Virus record (IMG/VR): IMGVR_UViG_3300046171_000227 | Span: 1-64,000 of that record | DNA: 64,000 nt | Source of the DNA: a virus | Direction: 5' to 3' (one strand) | In this document: positions 10,501 to 54,311 of the stretch, one piece after another | Numbering within the stretch: the first letter of the stretch is position 1 | How the letters are laid out: the number at the start of each line of letters is the position of its first letter | The notes under the pieces: model-generated | The model's database searches: none | What the model was told of the DNA's origin: nothing | The model's input: only the letters and a program-made list of their open reading frames with translations | Made by a program: the position numbers and the translations under genes

Positions 10501-10739
10501 TAAACCAGATTGTTTTCTCTTAAGTACTTGACTGTTTCTTGACATCCACCAATTAAATCATCATTAAGTACAACACGAGGAAAGGTAGATCCTTTTCCAA
10601 ACTGTTCATAAAACTCTGCTCTAGTAAAGTCCCTACCCAATTTATACTCTACAAATTGCTGTTCTGCAAGTCCGAGAGCAGCGATTACTTTAGTGCAATA
10701 GGGACAACCAATCTTTGTGTAAACTAGAAAACTTCTCAT
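10500..10739 (-). CDS. Glutaredoxin
   Basis: CPYC, TFPRV, IGGC. Confidence 0.9.
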   Translation of the reverse strand: MRSFLVYTKIGCPYCTKVIAALGLAEQQFVEYKLGRDFTRAEFYEQFGKGSTFPRVVLNDDLIGGCQETVKYLRENNLV

Positions 10740-11382
10740 TTTTTAACGGACTCCCAATCTTTATCAAAAATTTCTAAACCTTTGTCAGGTGAGAATGTGA
10801 TCATACATTTGATCAAATACCTTTGGGGGCATTGTGCAAATCTCAGCACCATTATACCATGAACGGATTGCTCTTTGCACACTACGGATAGAAGCAGATA
10901 GAACCTGAGTTTTCATTCCATGAATGCGATACAACTCAGAAATAGAGCGCACAACTTCAAGTCCTGCCACTGACTGATCGTCCAGTCGTCCTACAAATGG
11001 AGAGACATAAGTAGCACCCGCTTTGGCAGATAGAACCGCCTGTGAGGCGCAGAAAATCAAAGTGACGTTAACCTTGATACCCTTGCTCCGAAAGACGCTT
11101 ACAGACGATTAGGCCCTCTCTGGTGCAAGGAACTTTGATAGTAGCGACATCACCAAACTTCTCAGCAAGTCGAATCCCCTCATCATACATTTCTAGATCA
11201 GAACCAACGACTTCCATGCTGATGTCTTTGACACCCATGTCTTTGATTTCTTGGTAAACATCCTCTGGATTTTTACCACTCTTCATAATGAGAGTTGGAT
11301 TAGTAGTTACGCCGTCTACTAACCCTGTAGAAAAATACTTTGCGATCACATCTGTGTCCGCAGTATCAAGAAAAATTTTCAT
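10736..11382 (-). CDS. talC: Transaldolase TalC (two apparent +1 indels at ~11081 and ~10788)
   Basis: MKIFLDTAD, GVTTNPTL, IKVP, YVSPFVGRLDD, SASIR; removing two single bases restores one ORF. Confidence 0.9.
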
Positions 11383-19633: not shown

Positions 19634-20971
19634 TCATTCTGGATAGTCCCAATTGGTAATTGAATCTGTCTCATTACGAGGGCCCCATGATCCCACTTCA
19701 TGTATATACGGAGTGGTTCTAATTGGACAGGAGTCGCCAGTACAAAGGAGATCATCAACAATCCTCCATGATTCTATCACTTCTTCAGAATGAACAAAGT
19801 GTGATTGATCACTTTCTATAGCATCATATAGAAGTTTTTCATAACCATCAACTCCCAACCAATCAGGATAACGATGAGTAAGAGTAGCTAACTCTACACT
19901 CTCTCCTAATCCTGGAGATTTTACATCAATTTGAATATCTAGGTGAGCATGAGGTTGTAAACGCATAACAATTCTACCAGGAGTCTCCCCTCAAATAAAC
20001 CTAAGGGTGGCGCTTTAAGTTTTACAATAACCTCCACACATTGATAAGGCATTTTTTTGCCTGTCATAAAGCGAAAAGGAACTCCCTTCCAACGCCAGTT
20101 ATCGATGAATAAAGTACCAGCAACATAGGTAGGAGTGTTACTGTCAGGATCAACGCCCTCTTCATCGCGATAAGTTTCATATTGTCCAAGGATCATGTCC
20201 TCCCCTAGATGAGTAGCAGATAAAACTTTGACTTTTTCTCTTCTAATTTCTTTTGCGTCCATTCTACAAGGTGCTTCCATTGCAACTAGTGCAAGAATTT
20301 GAAGCATATGATTCTGCAGCATATCTCTTACAACACCTGCACCATCGTAATATTGAGATCTTCCTTCACAACCAATAGTTTCAGTCGCAAAAATTTGAAT
20401 CTCCTCTATGTACTCTCTGTTCCAAAGTGGTTCAAGAAGAACATTACCAAAGCGGGTGGCAAGGATATTATTAACAGTATCTTTACCAAGATAATGATCA
20501 ATGCGATATACTTGTTTTTCGCGTAGATGTCGCTCCACCACAGACTGTAGATGATTAGCAGATTGATAATCGTACCCAAAGGGTTTTTCAATAACAACAC
20601 GGGATTTTTCTGGATCATCTAAAAGTCCTCCTTGCTTGAGGTTGATGATTGCCCATTCATATCTTTCGGGTGGGACAGATAAGAAATAAGTTGTATCATC
20701 AGGTTTTGGGAAGTGTATTTAAACTTTCCTGACAGGATAAGTCACATGAAACATAATCTAATTGATGTAGAAATTCCTCTGGATATTCTCCAAGAGATTT
20801 TTTCCAAGCATCAACTCCAACATCTCTTCTAGCAGCACCAGTAATTAAAAATCCCCTTGGAAGAAGATCTTTCTCCCAAAGTTTATGAAGTGCTGGAATA
20901 AGTTTTCTTTTGCACAGATCTCCAGTGGCACCAAAGATTACTATACCTCTAGTGAGCAGTTCCGTTTCCAT
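19634..20971 (-). CDS. zwf: Glucose-6-phosphate dehydrogenase (indels at ~20702 and ~19988)
   Basis: IFGATGDL, EKPFG, RIDHYLGK, RDMLQNH and RWKGVPF spread over three frames. Confidence 0.92.
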
Positions 20972-21066
20972 TGTATTTGTCTGTTTCATAATAGTTATTT
21001 TCACCCTTTTTCATTCCAAAAAGTACAGTAGTCAATACAAAAGGTATCGAAATTATCATAAGGAAA

Positions 21067-22088
21067 TTACCTAACATGATGTCCTCCAAACATGTACCGC
21101 ATTCCATTAAGAACTTTATTTGCAAATGCTCCTAACTTTCTTGATCCGAATCGTTCAAATAGTGCGGTTGATATAACAGGTGCGGGAACACCAAGATCCA
21201 CAGCAGCGTGGACAGTCCAACGCCCCTCACCACTATCGCTAACTCCCCCACCGAACTTGCTAAGCTCTCTATCGCCGCGTAGAACATCAGCGGTAAGATC
21301 AAGCAACCAACTGCCAACCACGCTACCACGACGCCATAACTCAGCCACCTCAGCACAGTCAATATCATACTGATAATCTTCTGGATTCTCCATCGGAGCA
21401 ACCTCAGCATCGCCTTCCTTAACATATTTTGCCCCAGCATTAGCTTCATGCAGGATATTAAAGCCTTCGGCGTAGGCTTGCATGATTCCATACTCTACTC
21501 CATTATGAACCATTTTTACAAAGTGTCCTGCACCTGGAGGGCCGCAATGCAACCAACCATACTCAGCACTTGTTGCTCTACTCATAGGATCAGTTCTGGG
21601 AGATGAAGCGATGCCTGGTGCCAGTGCCCTAAAGATAGGAGCGCAGACGGATACTGCGCTATCTGTACCACCAACCATAAGACAGTATCCACGCTCCAAA
21701 CCGTAAACACCGCCGCTAGTGCCACAGTCAATATATTGGATGCCCAACTTAGAAAGACGCTCTGCCCTCCTCCTACTATCCTTAAAATTACTATTGCCAT
21801 GATCAATAATAATATCTCCCTCATCACAAAACTGTAGTAACTCATTTAAGGTGTCCTCCACTGTTTCTGCTGGTACAACCATCATGAAAATTCCAGGAGC
21901 ATTTGCTCTTTACAGCACTACAAAGTGATTGAATATCAACAGTTACACCATCAATACCACCATTTCTCCAAAAGTTCTTGCGCCTTTTCATAATTTCTAC
22001 GATATCCCCATACTTCGATACCGTCTTTCATCATGCGGCGAGACATACCCTCGCCCATTCTTCCTAGTCCAATAATTCCTACTTTCAT
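21067..22088 (-). CDS. gnd: 6-phosphogluconate dehydrogenase (indels at ~21965 and ~21903)
   Basis: MKVGIIGLGRMG, IDHGN, DCGTSGG, GAGHFVKMVHNGVEYG, DSGEGRW, FGGH. Confidence 0.92.
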
Positions 22089-41060: not shown

Positions 41061-41905
41061 GGTTTAATAAATTCTGCATACTTCTCCTGATTATTCTGAA
41101 TATACTCTGGATAACTTTCATCAATTGGAACTGGATGATACGATATTCCTCTACCTAAAGGATCAGATTTATTAGTCACTCTTGAAGAAGATTCAATTTC
41201 TGTAAGTTGTTGACTATCAGCACCTGCAGTCATTTTTTGCCTGTACCTTTCAACCCCTCCAAAGTAACTCCAGTGCCACCCACCATCTAGAAGACGATGT
41301 GATTCCTCCCACATACTATCACGTAATTTGTCAACTGACAAATCTTTCATTTTACCCCAGGTACATACCCTAGATCCTCTCCAATCATTCTGGTAATGAG
41401 TATTAAGATCATAGTAAAATGCTCTCTGCATAGCAGCATATAAGTTATTAGGATCAAACCAATCAGTATTTTCAAGTATCAACGGATTAATTATTTCATC
41501 AGCATCACTAGTGATCACCATGTCATCATCTTCAACCCCAGACTTTTCCAATGAGAACGCAGTGTAATTTCTTGCGTACATATCTCTTTGGTATCTATTA
41601 GGAATATCGATATATCGCATACCGCAATTGGGATCAATATCTTTGTATGCAGTGTGATATTTTTGTTTTTCATAATATGCAGTGAAATCACTGGGAATAT
41701 CTTCCATTACATTATGAATAACCTTATCATTAAATTTAGAAAAACGATCTCTATTCTCCCAATAATAAAGTGGTTTACTATCACCCATGGTTGTATATGG
41801 TGATTCTGTGATTACAAAGTAATCAACAACATCATAAAGAATATTGAATCTAATTTCAAGAATTTCTAGTTCATTAAAGAATCTAAAGGAATCGAATATT
41901 TTCAT
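41051..41905 (-). CDS. Glycosyltransferase family 17-like
   Basis: FFNELEILEIR, VVDYFVITES, SDADEI, GGWHWSY. Confidence 0.82.
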   Translation of the reverse strand: MKIFDSFRFFNELEILEIRFNILYDVVDYFVITESPYTTMGDSKPLYYWENRDRFSKFNDKVIHNVMEDIPSDFTAYYEKQKYHTAYKDIDPNCGMRYIDIPNRYQRDMYARNYTAFSLEKSGVEDDDMVITSDADEIINPLILENTDWFDPNNLYAAMQRAFYYDLNTHYQNDWRGSRVCTWGKMKDLSVDKLRDSMWEESHRLLDGGWHWSYFGGVERYRQKMTAGADSQQLTEIESSSRVTNKSDPLGRGISYHPVPIDESYPEYIQNNQEKYAEFIKPWN

Positions 41906-42897
41906 CAATTTTTCCAATAATCATAAATGTCTTTCGTCACTTCATAATCCATATCTTTAACTTTTCTATTAGGTTGCTTCATAGCCCAAACAAACATACT
42001 CTCAATCAATTCATTAAGGTTTGTATTATCCTCGAAGTTGAGAATAGTTTTTGCTTTAGTATGATCACAATAAGCATGTTTTACTTCATGACGTGGTTCA
42101 CCATGCTCAATGTTTACCTGATAACCATACTTTGCAGCAATAGTCTGAACTGAAATAGCAACTTCATTCAGTGAGAAATGTTTATCAGCACCAATATTAA
42201 ATGTCTCACCATCATGATCCGTTAAGAGTTTATCAAACGGTTCCATATAATATTTGATATCAGAGAATGCTCTTGTTTGTTCTCCATCACCGTAGACAAG
42301 AATAGGTTGTCCATTCAACGCCTTACGGATGAAGATACCAATCACATTACGATATCTGTCCCAGATATTCTGATAAACTCCGAGAACATTGTGAGGACGA
42401 ACAATATTGTATCGTAATCCGAATTGTTCATACGCTAATTTCAAATCACATTCTACTGCATATTTTGCAATACCATATGGATCAATAGGTTGTGGACGCT
42501 TATCTTCGGTAAATGGTGGAGTTTGATCTCCATAGACTGCCATACTAGAAGTGAAGATGACTTTCGTTTCATAAGTGATGCACTCGTTGATCAGATTAGC
42601 GGAAACGATAAGATTATTACGATAATTGTAATTACGAATAAAAGGAGAAAGTCCTTCAGCCGCATACGCCGCGAAATGAACGAGGACATCAGGTTGATGC
42701 TCTTTAAAAAGTTCAGCAACTTTTTTCCTCCTTTCTAGATTTAATTTCACAAACGTAAATTTCTCCCCTTTAGGTACAAAGGCTTTGTACCCTCCAGAGA
42801 GATCATCAATACCTACTACATCATGCCCTGCAGCAAGAAGATGTCGTGAATAATTTGAACCAAGCAAACCAGCACAACCCGTTACGAAGATTTTCAT
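41905..42897 (-). CDS. NAD-dependent sugar epimerase/dehydratase
   Basis: TGCAGLLG, YGIAK, YGDGEQTRAF. Confidence 0.9.
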   Translation of the reverse strand: MKIFVTGCAGLLGSNYSRHLLAAGHDVVGIDDLSGGYKAFVPKGEKFTFVKLNLERRKKVAELFKEHQPDVLVHFAAYAAEGLSPFIRNYNYRNNLIVSANLINECITYETKVIFTSSMAVYGDQTPPFTEDKRPQPIDPYGIAKYAVECDLKLAYEQFGLRYNIVRPHNVLGVYQNIWDRYRNVIGIFIRKALNGQPILVYGDGEQTRAFSDIKYYMEPFDKLLTDHDGETFNIGADKHFSLNEVAISVQTIAAKYGYQVNIEHGEPRHEVKHAYCDHTKAKTILNFEDNTNLNELIESMFVWAMKQPNRKVKDMDYEVTKDIYDYWKN

Positions 42898-43751
42898 TCG
42901 TATCCATACTCCTTTTTCATTTCGTCGAATATTTTTCTGATACCCACATCAATTGTGGTTTGAGGAATCCACCAGTCAAGGATGTAAGTATCTGGTGCGT
43001 TTCTCTTATCAAGTTGAACGCTATCTTTAGCAAGTCCAGACTTGATATTAATATCATGCCTCCCAATCAATCCAAAACATCCCTGGATGATATTAGCAAC
43101 CTCTCTAATAGTGTTAGAGCGGAATGAGGTGATGTGAAGAGGATCTTCAGGTTTGAAGTCAGTATAAGACTCCATGATAGTCTCCAATGCCTCACAGCAG
43201 TCTTCAGCATAGAGGAACTGACGCTCTTCTGTGCCATCTGTCAGCATCTCAAACTCCTTCTCTTCAAATCCTTTACGGATAAAGTCAGTGATGACATGTG
43301 CTTTGTCCATGTCTTTCTCAATGCCGTAGACATTCCAGAACTTGACAATCAGTCCTTTTAGAGTGCTGGTATAAAGTTCACCAACACGTTTCAGCACACC
43401 ATAGGGAGAGTAACTCATGTTACTCATCTGAGATGATGCAAAGACAAAACGCTTCTTATACTTGCCAAGCAAATCAAAAATGTTTGCCATCATACGAGTG
43501 TTGTTATTAACAAAGTCAAACGTATGTTGATACTTCTTCAGATATCTAGAACCACCTACATCAAAGGCAAGAACAAATACAAAGTCCGCATTCTTGATTG
43601 CACGATCGAGATTATGATTCGGAATCTGAGTCAAATCTTCACCATGATGTCGAGCGATGTCGAATGGCGTGACATCATGCCCCTTAGCAGAAAGGTGCTC
43701 AACGAGATAAGCACCAATCTGTCCACTTGAACCCAATACTGTAACTTTCAT
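42894..43751 (-). CDS. NAD-dependent sugar epimerase/dehydratase
   Basis: GSSGQIG, YGVLK, DGTEERQFLY. Confidence 0.85.
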   Translation of the reverse strand: MKVTVLGSSGQIGAYLVEHLSAKGHDVTPFDIARHHGEDLTQIPNHNLDRAIKNADFVFVLAFDVGGSRYLKKYQHTFDFVNNNTRMMANIFDLLGKYKKRFVFASSQMSNMSYSPYGVLKRVGELYTSTLKGLIVKFWNVYGIEKDMDKAHVITDFIRKGFEEKEFEMLTDGTEERQFLYAEDCCEALETIMESYTDFKPEDPLHITSFRSNTIREVANIIQGCFGLIGRHDINIKSGLAKDSVQLDKRNAPDTYILDWWIPQTTIDVGIRKIFDEMKKEYGYE

Positions 43752-44797
43752 CGATTAGCAACCTGAATAGCAATCCAATTATATGTCTTTCTAATTCCTT
43801 CTTCAAGTGTCTGAGAATAATCCCAATCAAGTTTCTCACGAATGAGATCATTATTAGAATTACGTCCACGAACACCAAGAGGTGCGTCAAGTTTGTGACG
43901 CTTCTGAACAACCTTTCCAGAGACTCTAGCAGCAGTCTCTACAAGTTCATTGATGGTTACCATCTCTTCAGAACCAATATTGACAGGGCCAATAAAGTCA
44001 CTATCCATCAACCTTCTAGTTGCTTCAATGCATTCATCAATGAACAGGAAGGAACGAGTCTGTAAGCCATCTCCCCACACCTCGATGGATCCACCGAGCG
44101 GCGCGAGATCTGCGACTTTACGGCAGATTGCAGCTGGCGCTTTCTCTCTTCCACCCTCCCAGGTTCCTTCAGGCCCGAAGATATTATGATATCGAGCAAC
44201 CCGAACAGGGATATCGTGATTACGATGATAAGCAAAGTAAAGTCGTTCAGAAAATAGTTTTTCCCATCCGTATTCCGAGTCTGGATTGGCGGGGTATGCG
44301 GATTCTTCACGGCAATCTGGATTATCAGGATCAAGTTGATTATGCTCTGGATACATGCAGGCAGATCCAGAATAGAAAATCTTTGTCTTATTTACTTCTG
44401 TCCTTTCGTTAAGTTTACGTTGCTCTTCAAGGACATTCAGATTAATCGATACTGAATTATGCATGATGTCTGCGTCGTTCTCGCCAGTGAAAACGAAACC
44501 TGCACCACCCATATCGGCAGCAAACTGATAGATCTCATCAAAAGATTCAATCAGTCTTTCTGGAACATTTTTAAAAAAGTTTCCATTATATCCTTTAAAT
44601 TCAAGAACTCTTTTCACGAATGAAACATCCCTGAGATCACCAAGGATAAATTCGTTTGCTCTAGTAGAAGAGAACTCAGGATTCTTTAGATCTACTCCGC
44701 GAACCCAGTAACCTTCTTCGCGGAGTCTTTTAACCATATGACTTCCAATAAAGCCACCTGCACCAAGTACCAGTGCAGTCTTATTATATTCAGACAT
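43748..44797 (-). CDS. GDP-mannose 3,5-epimerase-like SDR
   Basis: GAGGFIGSH, AADMGGAGF, SACMYP, YGWEK, GGREKAPAAICRK. Confidence 0.85.
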   Translation of the reverse strand: MSEYNKTALVLGAGGFIGSHMVKRLREEGYWVRGVDLKNPEFSSTRANEFILGDLRDVSFVKRVLEFKGYNGNFFKNVPERLIESFDEIYQFAADMGGAGFVFTGENDADIMHNSVSINLNVLEEQRKLNERTEVNKTKIFYSGSACMYPEHNQLDPDNPDCREESAYPANPDSEYGWEKLFSERLYFAYHRNHDIPVRVARYHNIFGPEGTWEGGREKAPAAICRKVADLAPLGGSIEVWGDGLQTRSFLFIDECIEATRRLMDSDFIGPVNIGSEEMVTINELVETAARVSGKVVQKRHKLDAPLGVRGRNSNNDLIREKLDWDYSQTLEEGIRKTYNWIAIQVANR

Positions 44798-47195: not shown

Positions 47196-47219
47196 TTTTC
47201 ATAACCCTCCTAATGGGAA

Positions 47220-47291
47220 TGCTTGATGACGGGATCGAACCGCCGACACCCAGAATGTAACTCTGGTGTTCTACCTCTGAACTAATCAAGC
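47220..47291 (-). tRNA. tRNA-Val(UAC)
   Basis: GCTTGAT/ATCAAGC-A; CCAGA-GTTACAT-TCTGG. Confidence 0.85.
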
Positions 47292-47295
47292 AAAG

Positions 47296-47367
47296 CTCCC
47301 CCACTTGGACTCGAACCAAGAACCGCTCGATTAACAGTCGAGAGCTCTACCATTGAGCTATAGAGGA
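47296..47367 (-). tRNA. tRNA-Asn(GUU)
   Basis: TCCTCTA/TGGGGGA-G; CTCGA-CTGTTAA-TCGAG. Confidence 0.9.
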
Positions 47368-47541
47368 TTGTTTTTTTGTTCCTTCTTTAGTTTGAAATAC
47401 AGTTTATGATAATTATCACACATTTTTCTGAGAACATCTCTGTCTTCGTCAAAACCAAGTTTCTTAGTGTGTTGATAAGAACCTTCTAACTCGGATATAA
47501 GTAGAAGAATTTCAACTGGTTTCATGTTCCTAAAAAAGGAA

Positions 47542-47613
47542 AGCGGAGTATCGGAATCGAACCGACGACATCTAACTTGGAAGGATAGCGTTCTACCGCT
47601 GAACTAACTCCGC
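47542..47613 (-). tRNA. tRNA-Gly(UCC)
   Basis: GCGGAGT/ACTCCGC-T; loop CTTCCAA. Confidence 0.88.
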
Positions 47614-47617
47614 GAGG

Positions 47618-47691
47618 CGTCTCAGGTAGGACTCGAACCTACGGCCGACTGCTTAGAAGGCAGTTGCTCTAATCCACTGAGCTACTGAGAC
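47618..47691 (-). tRNA. tRNA-Arg(UCU)
   Basis: GTCTCAG/CTGAGAC-G; ACTGC-CTTCTAA-GCAGT. Confidence 0.92.
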
Positions 47692-47703: not shown

Positions 47704-47910
47704 TCAAATCTCTGATTCAGAACCCCGAGTTGTGTCTTCAAGTACAATGTAGTCCATTCCATCCATTTTGTCAAGATCGAACCACTCGTACCATTCATCC
47801 ATCATTGCAAGTCTATCATAAATTTGATCAACAGATTCATTTTGTGCCATTTCTTCAATATGAGTAATAGCCCAGTTACGAGCCTGCATTACTACGTCCG
47901 TCGTTTCCAT
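47704..47910 (-). CDS. Hypothetical protein
   Basis: Start placed at METTDVV; LAMMDEWYEW. Confidence 0.55.
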   Translation of the reverse strand: METTDVVMQARNWAITHIEEMAQNESVDQIYDRLAMMDEWYEWFDLDKMDGMDYIVLEDTTRGSESEI

Positions 47911-48328
47911 AGTAGTCTTTTCGGAAGTATCGGCTGAGGATGTTACTATTGTAGAACTTTGGAACTCCGTTGTCAAGGGATTCTGTAAGGACTCCGTTGA
48001 CGAAGAGTTGTCTGGTTTCTTCAAAATTAGTTTTGCCCTTCGTGTTATGAACGCTGATAATAGTTCTGCTAAAATTTTGCTTACCGAATTTGTCAATGTC
48101 TTCTTTAAGTTCCGGACAAGAACCATAATATTTTTTCCAGTCAGATTCAGATTTTACTTTTCGTTTTTTACCTCTTGGAGTTCTAAACTGCCAGAAGTAT
48201 TTTCTACCGATGTACTGTCGATTATTTTGTAAATTTGTAATGAGGTAGACAAAACCGAACTTATCGCCAATATTTTCAGATAAAAAAGGTTGTCCTTCAA
48301 AAATCCAGGGATTTTCATAATCAACCAT
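47876..48328 (-). CDS. GIY-YIG-family endonuclease
   Basis: GFVYLITN...QYIGRK...WKKYYGS...FYNSNI. Confidence 0.82.
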   Translation of the reverse strand: MVDYENPWIFEGQPFLSENIGDKFGFVYLITNLQNNRQYIGRKYFWQFRTPRGKKRKVKSESDWKKYYGSCPELKEDIDKFGKQNFSRTIISVHNTKGKTNFEETRQLFVNGVLTESLDNGVPKFYNSNILSRYFRKDYYGNDGRSNAGS

Positions 48329-48354
48329 TACAAATTTATTTCAATTTCGATTAT

Positions 48355-50760
48355 TTATATCTTCCAAATAAGATCACAATAATCTTGAATTGATCGATCT
48401 GATGAGAAGAATCCAGATCTAGCGATATTTATCAATGACTTACGACTCCATTCTTCACGATTGCCCCAGGTAGTATCAACTACACTTTGGGCACGATTAT
48501 AATCCTCAAAGTCGGCACATACGCAGAATGGATCACTATTGAGAATATTATCAATTAGTGGTTTAAATACTTCTCTATCCCCGCCACTAAAGTGTCCAGA
48601 TTTTACAAGTTGAATCGCTTCAAATAATTTGGGACTCATGAAATGTTTTGGATTGTATCCATTACTCCATAGTTCACCAATCTGCTCCTCAGTATTACCG
48701 AAGAGGAAAAAGTTCTCTTCACCTACCAAATCACGAATCTCAACGTTTGCACCATCAAGTGTACCAATAGTCAAAGCACCATTCATCTGGAACTTCATAT
48801 TACCAGTGCCAGATGCTTCTTTACCTGCTGTAGAAATCTGTTCCGACAAATCCGCAGCAGGATATACCTTCTCTCCAAGTTTAACACTATAGTTTGGAAG
48901 GAAAATAACTTTCAGTTTCCCATCCATATCAGGATCACTATTGATAGTTTCAGCAATAGAGCAGATAAATCTGATAATAAGTTTTGCCATCCAGTAACCT
49001 GGAGCAGCTTTACCGCCAAATATTACTGTGCGAGGTACAACGTAATCGTCTTTGTGATTTTTGATATACACATACCTAGAAACCACCCATAAAGCAAGGA
49101 GATGCTGGCGTTTATATTCATGAATCCTCTTTACTTGAACGTCAAACATACTTGACGGATCAACAGAAACACCAAGAGTCTTCTGTATATATCGAGACAG
49201 TTTATGTTTTCCTAAAGTTTTGGTGTTTGCAATCTGTTCGAGTAAGTTAGAATCATCAAGTCCATCTTCAAGTACTTGAAGTTTACTCATATCAGATATC
49301 CAATCAGAACCAATGTAATCAGTAATAACTTGACTTAATGCAGTGTTAGAACTTGCCAACCACCTTCTGGGGGTTACACCATTGGTAACATTAGTAAACT
49401 TATGAGGCCAAAGTTCATAGAACTCTGGCATTAGATTTTTAGTGATAAGATCTGAGTGAAGCGCAGCGACACCATTTACATGATGAGATCCAACCGTTGC
49501 AAGGTTTGCCATACGAATAGATCTGTTTCCATCCTCATCAATGATAGAAAGTTTCCTGAGGATTTTGTCATCACCAGGATACTTCATCCTAACAACCTGT
49601 AAGAACCTATGGTTGATATCATAGATGATCTCAAGGTGTCTAGGAAGTAAATCCCCAAACATCTCCAGATCCCACTTCTCAAGTGCTTCTGGAAGGAGAG
49701 TATGATTAGTGTATGCGATTGACTTGGTTGTAATATCCCATGCAAGATCCCAGTCAAGTCTATTATCATCAACGAGAAGTCTCATCAACTCAGCAACAGC
49801 TACTGCTGGATGAGTGTCATTTAATTGAACTTGATAGTGTTTATGAAAATCTTCTAAAGAAATATTATTTTCTTTAAGTGTTCTAATCATATCCTGAAGT
49901 GAGGCACTAACAAAGAAAAACTGTTGCTTTAATCTCAGTCTCTTTCCTTGACAGGTTCCATCATTTGGATAAAGAACTTTAGAAATAGTCTCAGTAAAGA
50001 CACACTTCTCTACCGAACCCAGGTAGTCTCCTTGGTTAAATGCATCGAAATCAAATACATCGCAAGCATCCGCTCTCCAGAGTCTTAATTTGTTGCACCC
50101 CTCAACATTATATCCAACCTGAAGAACATCATAAGGAACCGCAAAGACGTACTCCTCAGGCACCCAGCGTACTCTCTTAATATTATCCCCATTGTTTGAG
50201 GTATAGTGTTCAACTTTACCACCAAAACCAACCTTTACGGATTGATCTGGATAACTAACTTCCCAAGGCCAATCACCGTGCAACCAGTTATCAGTAACTT
50301 CTACCTGTTGATTGTTGTGTATACTCTGCTTGAAAATACCAAACTTGTATCTAATACCATATCCCGTTGCAGGAACCTTCAGAGTGGAAAGAGACTCCAT
50401 ATAACAAGCAGCGAGTCTACCCAATCCACCATTACCCAATCCAGGTTCTTCTGCTTGTTCTAAAATCTCATCAAGAGAATATCCATACTCTTTTACAGAC
50501 TCTGCCGCAACCTCTTTCAATCCAAGATTGAGTAAATTATTTGCTAGTTGTGGCCCTATCAAAAACTCTGCTGATAGATATGCGACTGTTTTATTTGGTT
50601 TAGGATTATTATGATAAGATGTCATCATCCTATCCCTAATGGCATAACACAATGCCATATACACATCATGAACCGTTTCGGTTTTTGGTTTCTTACCTAA
50701 GGTGAATGTAAGATGATCACCAATTGCCGAACTAATATCAACAGTACTAATTTTATGCAT
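48355..50760 (-). CDS. glgP: Glycogen/starch/alpha-glucan phosphorylase (GT35), intact
   Basis: GLGNGGLGRLAAC, LYPND, QLNDTHP, YTNHT, TNGVTPRRW, KRIHEYKRQ, EASGTGNMK (PLP lysine), FSSDRSI. Confidence 0.97.
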   Translation of the reverse strand: MHKISTVDISSAIGDHLTFTLGKKPKTETVHDVYMALCYAIRDRMMTSYHNNPKPNKTVAYLSAEFLIGPQLANNLLNLGLKEVAAESVKEYGYSLDEILEQAEEPGLGNGGLGRLAACYMESLSTLKVPATGYGIRYKFGIFKQSIHNNQQVEVTDNWLHGDWPWEVSYPDQSVKVGFGGKVEHYTSNNGDNIKRVRWVPEEYVFAVPYDVLQVGYNVEGCNKLRLWRADACDVFDFDAFNQGDYLGSVEKCVFTETISKVLYPNDGTCQGKRLRLKQQFFFVSASLQDMIRTLKENNISLEDFHKHYQVQLNDTHPAVAVAELMRLLVDDNRLDWDLAWDITTKSIAYTNHTLLPEALEKWDLEMFGDLLPRHLEIIYDINHRFLQVVRMKYPGDDKILRKLSIIDEDGNRSIRMANLATVGSHHVNGVAALHSDLITKNLMPEFYELWPHKFTNVTNGVTPRRWLASSNTALSQVITDYIGSDWISDMSKLQVLEDGLDDSNLLEQIANTKTLGKHKLSRYIQKTLGVSVDPSSMFDVQVKRIHEYKRQHLLALWVVSRYVYIKNHKDDYVVPRTVIFGGKAAPGYWMAKLIIRFICSIAETINSDPDMDGKLKVIFLPNYSVKLGEKVYPAADLSEQISTAGKEASGTGNMKFQMNGALTIGTLDGANVEIRDLVGEENFFLFGNTEEQIGELWSNGYNPKHFMSPKLFEAIQLVKSGHFSGGDREVFKPLIDNILNSDPFCVCADFEDYNRAQSVVDTTWGNREEWSRKSLINIARSGFFSSDRSIQDYCDLIWKI

Positions 50761-50791
50761 AATATTATGCGATGTGTTTACTATTTAAGCA

Positions 50792-50826
50792 CAAAAAAAG
50801 AGTCCGTCAACTAAGTTGAGGACTCT
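50792..50826 (-). terminator. Terminator between nrdB and glgP
   Basis: GAGTCC-TCAAC-TTA-GTTGA(C)-GGACTC followed by T7. Confidence 0.7.
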
Positions 50827-50842
50827 GTTTTGTTTTCCTAAC

Positions 50843-52033
50843 TCAAAGTTGGAATCCAGAAAAAGTATCTTTCTTGACATCCTGCTTGATACCGCCTACA
50901 ACATAAGACTCTACTTCTGTCTCTTGAGGAGCAACCTGAAGTCCTTTAGAAGAGATCCAATGTTGAGTCCATGGCAGAGGATTGTTCTTGGCAGCAATAT
51001 CATACTGAGGAGTCAGTCCTATTGCCTTCAGACGACGATTAGCAATCCACTCAACATACTGCTGAAGAAGTTTGTCATTCAGTCCGATCATTGAACCATC
51101 TTTGAACAAATAGTCTGCCCAACGCTTCTCTTCGTTAACAGCACGATCAAACATCTTATAAGTCCACTCTTCTTCTTCCTTCATGATTTGCTTCATTTCA
51201 GGATCATCACCTTGTTTCCACTTATTAAGAATGTTTTGTGTGATTGCAAGATGCTGGTTCTCATCTCTGGCGATAAGCGAGATGATCTTAGCGGATCCTT
51301 CCATAAGTTTAAGTTCGCCAAATGCAAAGCTGCAAGCGAAACTAACATAGAATCGAATACCCTCTAGGATGTTGACGTTTGCAACTGCTCTATAAAGTTT
51401 ACGCTTGATGTCATTAATCTCCCATTGTGCTGTGGGAGAATCTCTGAACTCTTTACTCCACATATTACCAGTGCCCCAAGTTTGAGCACTATTAATAAAA
51501 TCATCATATGCTTCTGTAACGCTGCTAGCACGCTCTAGAATACGCTGATCAGTAACGATCTTATCGAATACCTCTGAAGGATCCGAATAAACGTTCTTGA
51601 TGATGTAAGTGTAAGAACGACTATGGATCATCTCCATGAATCCCCAGACTTCCATACATGCTTCCAATTCAGGAAGAGAGCAGTAAGGAATGAATGCCAT
51701 TCCAGGGCCTCTACCTTGAATAGAATCTAACATAATCTGATACTTCAGGTTAGAAGTATAGATATGTTTTTGTTCTGGACGAAGAGTTTGATAATCTCCA
51801 CGATCTTTTTGCAGAGATACTTCTTCGGGACGCCAAAAGTATCCAAGTTGTTGAGTAGTCAGTTTATCGAAAACTGGATACTTATAAGAGTCATACCTCT
51901 GGACTCCCAGGGGTTTTCCAAAAAACATGGGTTGCTTTTTGGTATCTACTTGTTCTGTATTGAAAACAGTCATCCCTTTGACTTCTGTTTTCTTATCTTC
52001 TATTGATGAAACCTTAAACTGCACAGGATTCAC
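50843..52033 (-). CDS. nrdB: Class Ia ribonucleotide reductase beta subunit
   Basis: FWRPEEV, EMIHSRSY, LEGIRFYVSF, RDENQH, APQETEVESY. Confidence 0.97.
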   Translation of the reverse strand: MNPVQFKVSSIEDKKTEVKGMTVFNTEQVDTKKQPMFFGKPLGVQRYDSYKYPVFDKLTTQQLGYFWRPEEVSLQKDRGDYQTLRPEQKHIYTSNLKYQIMLDSIQGRGPGMAFIPYCSLPELEACMEVWGFMEMIHSRSYTYIIKNVYSDPSEVFDKIVTDQRILERASSVTEAYDDFINSAQTWGTGNMWSKEFRDSPTAQWEINDIKRKLYRAVANVNILEGIRFYVSFACSFAFGELKLMEGSAKIISLIARDENQHLAITQNILNKWKQGDDPEMKQIMKEEEEWTYKMFDRAVNEEKRWADYLFKDGSMIGLNDKLLQQYVEWIANRRLKAIGLTPQYDIAAKNNPLPWTQHWISSKGLQVAPQETEVESYVVGGIKQDVKKDTFSGFQL

Positions 52034-54311
52034 ACTCTCCCTCCTCGGCTTGTTCTAATTCTTCTAACAGGTTATTCAGTTTTTCTTTGTCTTCCTCTAC
52101 TTCATCAGACTTTAGATCATTTGTGTTCTGGTAATAAGAGGTTTTCCAACCGTACTTATATGTAGTTAAAAAGTCTTGTGCCATGATGGACACTGGGACT
52201 TCATTATCATCATAATGCTCCGGATTGTAACTCCAGTTACCAGAAATTGCCTGATCAAAGAACTTTTGCATTACTGCGACAACATTAATATAACCTTTGT
52301 TGTTAGGCATGTCCCACAAGAGAGTATAATTATTCTTCAAAGAATTGTATTGAGGAACAATCTGCTTAAGAGGCCCTTTCTTTGATTTTTTAACGGACAA
52401 GTAGTCGCGAGGTGGTTCGATTCCATTGGTGGCATTTGACACAACGGAACTGCTCTCCGATGGCATCTGTGCGGACAACGTACTGTGCCGTAATCCAAAT
52501 TCGTTGATAGATGCCCTAAGAGATTCCCAATCATGCTGGAGTTGTTGAGAAGAAATTTCGTCTACGTCCTTCTTGTATGTATCAATAGGAAGAATTCCAT
52601 CGGCGTACTTAGTGCGTCCAAAGTATTCGCAGTGTCCCTTTTCCTTAGCAATTTGATTAGAAGACTTCAGAAGGTAATACTGGAAGGACTCAGAGAGTCC
52701 ATGAACAGCATCCCATGCCTCTTGATCACCATACTTATATCCAAGTTTTGCCAGATAATGTGCTAAACCGATGAAACCAATGCCAAGCGATCTACGTGCC
52801 CTTGTAGCGATTTCTGCTGCCCTTACAGGATACTTCTGATAGTCAATGAGTTCTTCTAGTCCGCGTACAGAAAGATCACAAAGGTTTTCAAGTTCTTCAT
52901 CAGACTTGACTTTACCAACATTGATAGCGGAAAGAATACAAAGTGCAATCTCACCATACTCATCATCAATATGATTCAGAGGATATGTCGGAAGAGTAAT
53001 CTCTTGACACAAGTTGGACATCTCAACCTTGTCTTTGAAGGATGAGTGAGAGTTACAATGATCGATGTTCATAATATAAACACGTCCAGTCTCTGCACGC
53101 TCTTTCAGCAGATCAAGAATCAGTTTCTGAGCACCGATAGTCTTTCTTGGAATAGACTGATCTGATTCATAGTCCACATAGCGAGCGTCAAATGAATCAG
53201 TACCAAAAGCATCATACAAACCTGGTACGTCATGCGGTGAGAATAAGCTAATTTCTCCATCCTGGATGAAACGCTCATAGAAAAGTTTTGAAATCTGGAT
53301 CGAGTAGTCAAGTTTCCTTACGCGATTGTCCTCTGTACCCTTGTTGTTCTTAAGGACAATTATGTCTTCGATTTCTTGGTGCCAGATTGGGAAGTGGACA
53401 GTCGCTGAGCCACCTCGTATTCCATTCTGTGTACAACACCGGACAGTCGATTCAAACTTTTTAAGGAATGGTACAACACCTGTGTGTTGAACTTCTCCGC
53501 CTCGGATCTTACTGTTGATGCCACGGATTCGGCCTGCGTTGATACCGATGCCCGCCCTTTGTGCAACATATCTGCCGATAGCCATATCAGAAGTAAAGAT
53601 GCTATCGAGGGTGTCATCAACATCAACAAGAACACAGCTAGCAAATTGTCGAAGTGGAGTTCGCACTCCTGCCATGATAGGTGTGGGAATGTTGATTTTG
53701 TGTTTGCTGATTGCGTCGTAGTATCGTTTGACATAAGTCATCCTGGTTTCTTTGGGATACTCTGCAAAAATAGTCAGAGCAATCATGATATACATGAACT
53801 GAGGAGTCTCGTACACTCCACCAGTGCTGCGATCTTGAACCAGATACTTATCTGCTACTTGACGCAACCCAGCATAAGTGAAGAGAAAGTCACGATGATG
53901 ATCGATGTAGGAATTTGCTTTCGCAATCTCCTCCTTAGAGTATTTAAGGAAAATTTCTTTGTCATACACCTCAATATTTGTGCAACTCATGATATGAGTT
54001 TCCAAATCAGGAAGTTCACGCATCTTTCCATATAATTGCTTCCTGAGTGAGAATAGAAGCAGTCTAGCAGCGACGAATTGATAGTTAGGATGTTCTAGAT
54101 CAATCAGATCGCTTGCCGCCTTAATCAGAATTTCTTGAATCTCTGCTGTTGTGATGCCATCATAAAACTGAATACCAGACTTCATCTCAACTTGACTAGC
54201 GGAAACACCTGCAAGTCCTGTGGTTGCTTCATCAACCATCAGATGCATTTTATCTAAATCAAGAGACTCGATTCTACCGTCTCGCTTTTTAACCTTGATA
54301 CCGTTACTCAT
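52014..54311 (-). CDS. nrdA: Class Ia ribonucleotide reductase alpha subunit
   Basis: ATP cone, FASCVL, SNLCQEI, TNGIEP, C-terminal CESC. Confidence 0.98.
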   Translation of the reverse strand: MSNGIKVKKRDGRIESLDLDKMHLMVDEATTGLAGVSASQVEMKSGIQFYDGITTAEIQEILIKAASDLIDLEHPNYQFVAARLLLFSLRKQLYGKMRELPDLETHIMSCTNIEVYDKEIFLKYSKEEIAKANSYIDHHRDFLFTYAGLRQVADKYLVQDRSTGGVYETPQFMYIMIALTIFAEYPKETRMTYVKRYYDAISKHKINIPTPIMAGVRTPLRQFASCVLVDVDDTLDSIFTSDMAIGRYVAQRAGIGINAGRIRGINSKIRGGEVQHTGVVPFLKKFESTVRCCTQNGIRGGSATVHFPIWHQEIEDIIVLKNNKGTEDNRVRKLDYSIQISKLFYERFIQDGEISLFSPHDVPGLYDAFGTDSFDARYVDYESDQSIPRKTIGAQKLILDLLKERAETGRVYIMNIDHCNSHSSFKDKVEMSNLCQEITLPTYPLNHIDDEYGEIALCILSAINVGKVKSDEELENLCDLSVRGLEELIDYQKYPVRAAEIATRARRSLGIGFIGLAHYLAKLGYKYGDQEAWDAVHGLSESFQYYLLKSSNQIAKEKGHCEYFGRTKYADGILPIDTYKKDVDEISSQQLQHDWESLRASINEFGLRHSTLSAQMPSESSSVVSNATNGIEPPRDYLSVKKSKKGPLKQIVPQYNSLKNNYTLLWDMPNNKGYINVVAVMQKFFDQAISGNWSYNPEHYDDNEVPVSIMAQDFLTTYKYGWKTSYYQNTNDLKSDEVEEDKEKLNNLLEELEQAEEGECESCAV

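Follow-up and report, generated by a model that had tools for sequence, protein, structure and literature searches.

A trimmed glycogen phosphorylase gene in a T4-like cyanomyovirus fragment and a proposed route from host glycogen to phage nucleotides

Cyanophages divert carbon of their hosts to the pentose phosphate pathway; the source of that carbon is less clear, and matters most at night or when photosynthesis shuts down. A glycogen phosphorylase gene in a cyanophage genome raises the question of whether the storage polymer of the host could be this source. Such a gene, glgP (48355..50760, minus strand), lies in a 64,000-nucleotide (nt) stretch of DNA, here termed the window, comprising positions 1 to 64,000 of IMG/VR record IMGVR_UViG_3300046171_000227, a metagenome-assembled fragment of 75,268 bp that is ~35% complete. 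The reading favoured here, and considered probable, is that glgP is a genuine cyanomyovirus auxiliary metabolic gene (AMG), the product of which would mobilise host glycogen outside host control and feed the pentose phosphate pathway; the phage enzyme would thus point to the host storage polymer as the carbon source.

The phosphorylase gene and its cyanophage relatives

The frame of glgP has no internal stop codon and encodes an 801-amino-acid (aa) GT35 alpha-glucan (glycogen) phosphorylase in a trimmed form found in phages. The protein matches Pfam family PF00343 at 1029 bits (curated cut-off 27) over profile positions 2–713 of 713, and carries the EASGTGNMKF motif with K656 as the Schiff-base lysine for pyridoxal phosphate (PLP), which is invariant in 81 of 81 phage copies, as are all 19 catalytic and PLP residues checked (this lysine and 18 active-site residues). 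Residues of the phosphate and glucosyl site (rabbit numbering G135, L136, H377, N484, K568, R569, H571, Y573, K574, E672, S674, G675 and T676) are all kept in phage, host and other bacterial rows of the alignment. An earlier, sequence-only reading of this DNA had described an uninterrupted 801-aa GT35 phosphorylase with the PLP lysine motif, directly downstream of nrdB, a description borne out by the open reading frame (ORF) and its coordinates, the Pfam match and the motif. Rabbit muscle glycogen phosphorylase (800 bits) and Escherichia coli MalP (753 bits) align near full length and have all catalytic motifs in common with the phage protein, and the best PDB match is 9wvu, an 855-aa alpha-1,4-glucan phosphorylase (996 bits). 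As judged from its sequence, the window protein is a catalytically complete glycogen/alpha-glucan phosphorylase.

The contig carrying this gene encodes the T4-type proteins gp32, gp59, a baseplate wedge protein, PhoH, a gp41-type helicase and MazG, together with a psbA/psbD-like pair (identified by clustering only), and phage hallmark genes flank glgP on either side; the GC content of glgP (37–40%) is similar to that of its flanks. The region is syntenic with Synechococcus phage Bellamy (NC_047838), and the window is a fragment of a T4-like cyanomyovirus (Kyanoviridae) with a Bellamy-like backbone. Directly upstream of glgP on the minus strand are nrdB, for the small subunit of ribonucleotide reductase (50843..52033; PF00268, 1.5e-57), and beyond it nrdA, for the large subunit with its ATP-cone (52014..54311; PF02867, PF00317 and PF03477); directly downstream, on the same strand, a SegE-like GIY-YIG homing endonuclease gene (47876..48328; PF19835, 5.3e-55) is followed by a tRNA cluster predicted by ARAGORN (Arg-UCU, Gly-UCC, Asn-GUU and Val-UAC; 47219..47691), which bounds the far side of the insertion slot. 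The gene order in Bellamy is primase, nrdA, nrdB, three small ORFs, tRNA-Arg, Gly, Asn, Val, Ser, Pro and Met, and sugar epimerases, whereas in the window glgP and segE fill the slot between nrdB and tRNA-Arg that holds the three small ORFs in Bellamy. This slot looks like a hot spot of gene exchange. As a separate observation, one of the three small ORFs in the Bellamy slot (154610–155403; L279:5142–5935) encodes a 147-aa ‘NAD synthetase’ fragment.

Both junctions of glgP recur in independent assemblies. Three IMG/VR contigs from other metagenomes (L003, L004 and L005) are collinear with the window over 9.3, 6.7 and 5.2 kb at 96.5, 95.1 and 89.3% nucleotide identity, respectively; L003 and L004 run from nrdA/nrdB through glgP and segE into the tRNA cluster, and the alignment of L005 stops at the start of segE. 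Around glgP the L003 alignment has 9,287 columns over 9,286 bases of each sequence, essentially no length difference, and a 2,784-nt Logan contig from a viral-fraction metagenome covers positions 48276–51059 without gaps. Sequencing runs from ten or more studies each contain at least 50% of the words sampled from the glgP stretch. The passage from nrdB through glgP to the endonuclease, which the sequence-only reading had singled out for confirmation, is therefore spanned by L003, L004 and the Logan contig (as contigs, not as raw reads), and the three IMG/VR contigs and the Logan contig across the junctions exclude a chimeric assembly.

Relatives of GlgP are encoded by at least 196 IMG/VR contigs, 80 loci of which were compared and are 69–99% identical to the window protein, and a protein database adds more than 120 clusters at 70–98% identity (ENA, JGI, NCBI, Logan and Tara). 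In a tblastn search of 50,697 deposited records of phages, the sole cyanophage with a homologue is S-SCSM2R (PQ898602), where ORF260, annotated as ‘carbohydrate phosphorylase’, is 76% identical to the window protein, belongs to the same phage clade and has the same trimmed form; most of the 22 tblastn matches in these records are bacterial records or gut fragments at 35–46% identity, and do not represent cyanophages. The main text of the S-SCSM2R paper (PMC12801897) names other phosphorylases and not ORF260, the S-SCSM1 paper does not mention glgP, and full-text literature searches, cyanophage AMG literature included, found no paper describing a cyanophage glgP. That GlgP lies outside the commonly listed cyanophage set, as the sequence-only reading had it, therefore agrees with the AMG literature searched, but the gene is not rare in the data; it is a further member of the known class of cyanophage central-carbon AMGs, common in the environment and almost undescribed. 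Two further proteins (P0049 and P0050) are GlgP at 77% identity, encoded on contigs that, at 482,719 and 481,176 bp, are roughly double the S-SCSM2R-like size of 240–250 kb; these contigs may be concatemer assemblies or much larger phages.

Across the 83 loci examined, glgP occupies three contexts, all of them classic cyanomyovirus neighbourhoods. The arrangement gp44–gp62–regA–glgP–(phosphomannomutase)–hsp20 ... gp43, with a GC content of 33–35%, accounts for 52 loci; nrdA–nrdB–glgP, mostly followed by segE, for 21, the window included; and a position among hli, petF, peroxiredoxin and psbA for five, as in S-SCSM2R, where ORF260 lies in another slot than window glgP, after petF and peroxiredoxin and before a GT24 gene, near psbA and with no adjacent segE. 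The segE gene (cluster 14) is downstream of glgP in 13 loci, directly so in most. Contexts switch several times within the phage clade, the nrdB context being found in two separate parts of the tree, and this repeated change indicates that glgP moves between genome slots, of which there are at least three. Particular to the window are the nrdB–glgP–segE cassette in place of the content of the Bellamy slot, this repeated change of context, and the insertions and deletions (indels) in the pentose phosphate genes described below.

Descent, selection and the trimmed form

A phylogeny against host GlgP, proposed with the sequence-only reading, was computed as a 188-row FastTree and a 54-row IQ-TREE analysis (LG+C20+F+G4, PMSF), which agree: phage GlgP is monophyletic (support 100) and sister (100) to a monophyletic picocyanobacterial GlgP clade (96), and neither the GlgP of other cyanobacteria nor a second paralogue of Cyanobium belongs to this pair. 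A family-wide search of the host family Cyanobiaceae found GlgP in 77 of 81 sampled genomes, at 62–66% identity to the phage protein and none closer. The simplest reading of these relationships would be a single old capture of glgP from a picocyanobacterial host lineage. Against its three nearest relatives window glgP gives omega values of 0.015, 0.042 and 0.031 (dS 0.17–0.48), and the median omega over 2294 pairs is 0.14, values that indicate strong purifying selection on the phage gene. Separately, a 3.3-kb contig binned as ‘uncultured Klebsiella sp.’ (L093, CAYFMB010000235.1) carries a GlgP placed inside the picocyanobacterial clade, and is probably mis-binned.

The phage proteins have the same GT35 fold and the same active site as GlgP of the Cyanobiaceae (Prochlorococcus, Synechococcus and Cyanobium), their sister clade, and differ from it in what they have shed, being ~796–802 aa long where the host protein has ~840 aa. 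An N-terminal tail of ~22 residues with a conserved ‘LPTPGC’ is present in every host row and in no phage row, and a C-terminal peptide of ~12 residues with ‘EITCDV’, beyond the ...IW(K/N)V end of the core, is present in 31 of 31 host-family rows and in none of the 81 phage rows. At two more positions where hosts conserve a cysteine the phages have V and A, so that all phage copies have lost four host-conserved cysteines, and two short internal segments are missing as well. The short N-terminus of the window protein is real, since the open frame extends only 8 codons beyond the ATG on its upstream side (809 aa at most). With respect to rabbit muscle glycogen phosphorylase the alignment begins at residue 28 of the muscle enzyme, in which the Ser14 phosphorylation site sits in the N-terminal segment; this segment is therefore absent from phage GlgP, and its regulation is not of the mammalian type.

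A recent preprint and a review describe a C-terminal peptide as found in GlgP of cyanobacteria only. In Synechocystis sp. PCC 6803, whose GT35 phosphorylases GlgP1 and GlgP2 are the reference for regulation through this peptide, a C-terminal Cys837/Cys842 switch turns GlgP1 off with reduced TrxA and on with oxidants. Lacking the peptide, the phage enzyme is without an element that controls at least one cyanobacterial GlgP, and phage GlgP may be deregulated. The loss of redox or allosteric control guessed at in the sequence-only reading fits what the alignment holds, both tails and four cysteines being gone in every phage copy. If phage GlgP is indeed deregulated, glycogen would be consumed in the infected cell by day and by night alike, and phage DNA synthesis in the dark or in low light could draw on it.

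A proposed path from host glycogen to phage nucleotides

During infection, GlgP would phosphorolyse host glycogen to glucose-1-phosphate without host control, which is probably redox- or thioredoxin-linked; glucose-1-phosphate would be converted to glucose-6-phosphate by the phosphoglucomutase of the host or, in some relatives, by a phage phosphomannomutase of the HAD type encoded next to glgP; and glucose-6-phosphate would enter an oxidative pentose phosphate pathway boosted by phage zwf, gnd and talC, supplying NrdAB and ThyX with NADPH and ribose-5-phosphate for the synthesis of nucleotides. The genes talC, zwf, gnd and cp12 are the classical cyanophage carbon AMGs, associated with pentose phosphate redirection (PMC10452541). 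Like glgP, they are host-derived central-carbon enzymes of T4-like cyanophages, usually shorter and less regulated than their host counterparts; the action of glgP lies one step earlier, on the storage polymer.

The sequence-only reading had listed zwf, gnd, talC, glutaredoxin, NrdAB and ThyX in the window, and all are found by homology, but each of zwf, gnd and talC is interrupted by a pair of 1-nt indels. The glucose-6-phosphate dehydrogenase gene zwf (19634..21004, minus strand) falls into three frame pieces with PF02781 in two frames (indels at ~20703 and ~19991), while relatives at 94–97.6% nucleotide identity have an intact 458-aa frame. The 6-phosphogluconate dehydrogenase gene gnd (21067..22088, minus strand; PF00393 and PF03446) has two private 1-nt insertions near its 5′ end (~21965 and ~21901), and its relatives an intact 352-aa frame; the transaldolase gene talC (10736..11382, minus strand; PF00923 in two frames) likewise has two private 1-nt insertions (~11084 and ~10789), and its relative L281 (95.6% nucleotide identity) an intact 214-aa frame. 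These six indels (five insertions, one deletion) are private to the contig and mostly adjoin short homopolymers; they are probably localised sequencing or assembly errors rather than signs of pseudogenes. Both complete glgP-bearing genomes also carry zwf.

An HAD-type phosphomannomutase homologue (PF03332, of eukaryotic type, with matches to PMM1 and PMM2 in the PDB down to 1e-28) adjoins glgP in 19 of the 83 loci (for example, L058:6341–7057), and could act as a glucose-1-phosphate/glucose-6-phosphate mutase or feed GDP-mannose synthesis. The same homologue occurs, annotated only as hypothetical, in the cultured cyanophages P-TIM68 (119674–120384), S-SSM7 (193830–194516) and S-SSM6a (81980–82666). 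The logic of the pathway is sound, and it has indirect support from phage S-SM1, which is without glgP: a review lists host GlgP among the few host proteins still made during infection by this phage.

Several points weigh against the glycogen-to-pentose phosphate reading. Phosphoglucomutase, phosphomannomutase and sugar-1-phosphate nucleotidyltransferase families have no match on the 75-kb contig, and the two mutase families have none in the two complete glgP-bearing genomes either, so that the link from glucose-1-phosphate to the pentose phosphate pathway depends on the host. The glycogen-to-deoxynucleotide route of the sequence-only reading is consequently not fully phage-encoded, and three of its genes, zwf, gnd and talC, have disrupted frames in this contig, while its first component stands, glgP being intact, phage-borne and under selection. 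The sequence by itself is compatible with glycogen or maltodextrin as the substrate and with either direction of the reaction. As to regulation, the picocyanobacterial tail has one cysteine and not the GlgP1 pair, its regulatory role being only putative, and GlgP1 from which the C-terminal peptide has been deleted shows lowered rather than freed activity; tail loss alone is therefore no proof of a constitutive phage enzyme, and the phage enzyme must work without the peptide. Lastly, pieces of this glgP lineage occur in two RNA libraries of different studies (a metatranscriptome and an oligo-dT library), a hint that glgP is transcribed, yet the matches are contigs for which DNA carry-over is possible, and they do not amount to proof of transcription.

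Glucose-1-phosphate might instead be drawn mainly into NDP-glucose and on to a nucleotide-sugar and glycosyltransferase island that modifies the cell surface or the virion, with the pentose phosphate pathway not the main sink. A supply to a nucleotide-sugar island 4 kb away had been part of the sequence-only reading, and genes for epimerases and dehydratases do lie at 41905–44797, starting ~3.5 kb from glgP, but proximity is all that links the two; in S-SCSM2R, glgP stands between a glycosyltransferase cluster and GT24/KdsAB genes, and the recurrent phosphomannomutase homologue belongs to an enzyme family of GDP-mannose synthesis. The contig nevertheless offers no match to the sugar-1-phosphate nucleotidyltransferase families, and the 52 loci in the regA–gp43 context lie among replication genes, with no glycan genes in the fetched flanks. 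Glycan synthesis as the main destination is accordingly rated unlikely; a side flow of glucose-1-phosphate to NDP-sugars for the nearby island would be possible, if less supported than the main flow, and the two destinations are not mutually exclusive.

It is improbable that the enzyme is a MalP-like maltodextrin phosphorylase acting on short glucans, or one that works in the synthetic direction, rather than one that breaks down glycogen granules. The alignment with E. coli MalP covers almost the full length, and GT35 enzymes are reversible in vitro; however, the nearest relatives are the GlgP proteins present in nearly all sampled host-family genomes, an alpha-1,4-glucan phosphorylase scores above MalP as the best match in the PDB, and high cellular phosphate favours phosphorolysis.

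Still less credible is persistence of glgP as a selfish passenger that hitch-hikes with the adjacent SegE and brings the phage no benefit. The 13 loci with segE downstream and the several changes of context within the clade are what such a passenger could produce, but omega values of 0.015–0.14, the retention of every catalytic residue in 81 copies, and the regA context, in which most copies lie without an adjacent endonuclease, already disfavour it. A joint proposal, in which shedding of the tails frees GlgP from thioredoxin or diel control and an nrdB–glgP–segE mobile cassette is spread by SegE among co-infecting cyanomyoviruses, is put forward only tentatively and is rather doubtful; a cassette spread in this way would, if real, explain the repeated change of slot within one gene clade.

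The chance that the locus arose from a false join of host DNA and a phage contig, or is a piece of host DNA wrongly classed as viral, is negligible and the idea can be regarded as refuted, for although the window is a metagenome-assembled fragment with six apparent sequencing indels elsewhere in the contig, independent contigs and the Logan contig bridge both junctions, no host genome copy exceeds 67% identity, glgP matches its flanks in GC content, and a cultured phage, S-SCSM2R, also carries the gene.

Should the glycogen-mobilising reading hold, the presence of glgP both widely in ocean viral contigs and in cultured S-SCSM2R makes the idea testable at the bench, and the consistent loss of the host terminal peptides amounts to a natural experiment on the regulation of cyanobacterial GlgP, which is itself only now being worked out.

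Putative transcription signals around glgP

The interval between nrdB and glgP contains a hairpin resembling an intrinsic terminator with a U-run (50792..50826, minus strand), which bears out as a structure the terminator claimed for this position from sequence alone: a 12-bp stem with a single bulged C (50799–50826) precedes a run of seven U (50792–50798), the fold has a dG of −19.9 kcal/mol (z −3.8), and none of 200 shuffles folds as well. The hairpin is kept in relatives L003–L005; a consensus terminator scan overlooked it owing to the bulge, and folding recovered it.

Between this hairpin and the gene, 21 nt before the glgP ATG, lies the late-promoter-like motif CTTAAATA (50782..50789, minus strand). 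The late-like element noticed earlier is thus present in sequence and position, but agrees with the T4 late consensus TATAAATA at only 6 of 8 positions. In a promoter comparison confined to the 13 loci of the window GlgP subclade, a TAAATA core recurs at −27 to −34 in 11 loci despite divergent flanks, a suggestive hint of a late promoter for glgP. A perfect TATAAATA (48352..48359, minus strand) overlaps the stop codon of glgP and precedes the segE ATG by 24 nt. As a sigma-70 promoter for window glgP, the sole hexamer pairing was rejected, having a 19-nt spacer and a second hexamer that ends 4 nt before the ATG.

Two other members of this subclade, L007 and L013, have a near-consensus sigma-70 promoter (TTGACG-N16-TATAAT) ~45 to 10 nt upstream of glgP, overlapping the TAAATA motif, which suggests that in those phages the host RNA polymerase transcribes the gene early. 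Together with the position of glgP right after regA in the most frequent context, this promoter indicates that the timing of expression may differ among phages.

Unconnected with the phosphorylase, ten loci in the regA context (L064:3823–4947 and nine others), all on cyanophage contigs, encode, near gp44, a 374-aa protein that weakly matches DruA, a protein of the Druantia defence system (PF14236, 3.3e-8).

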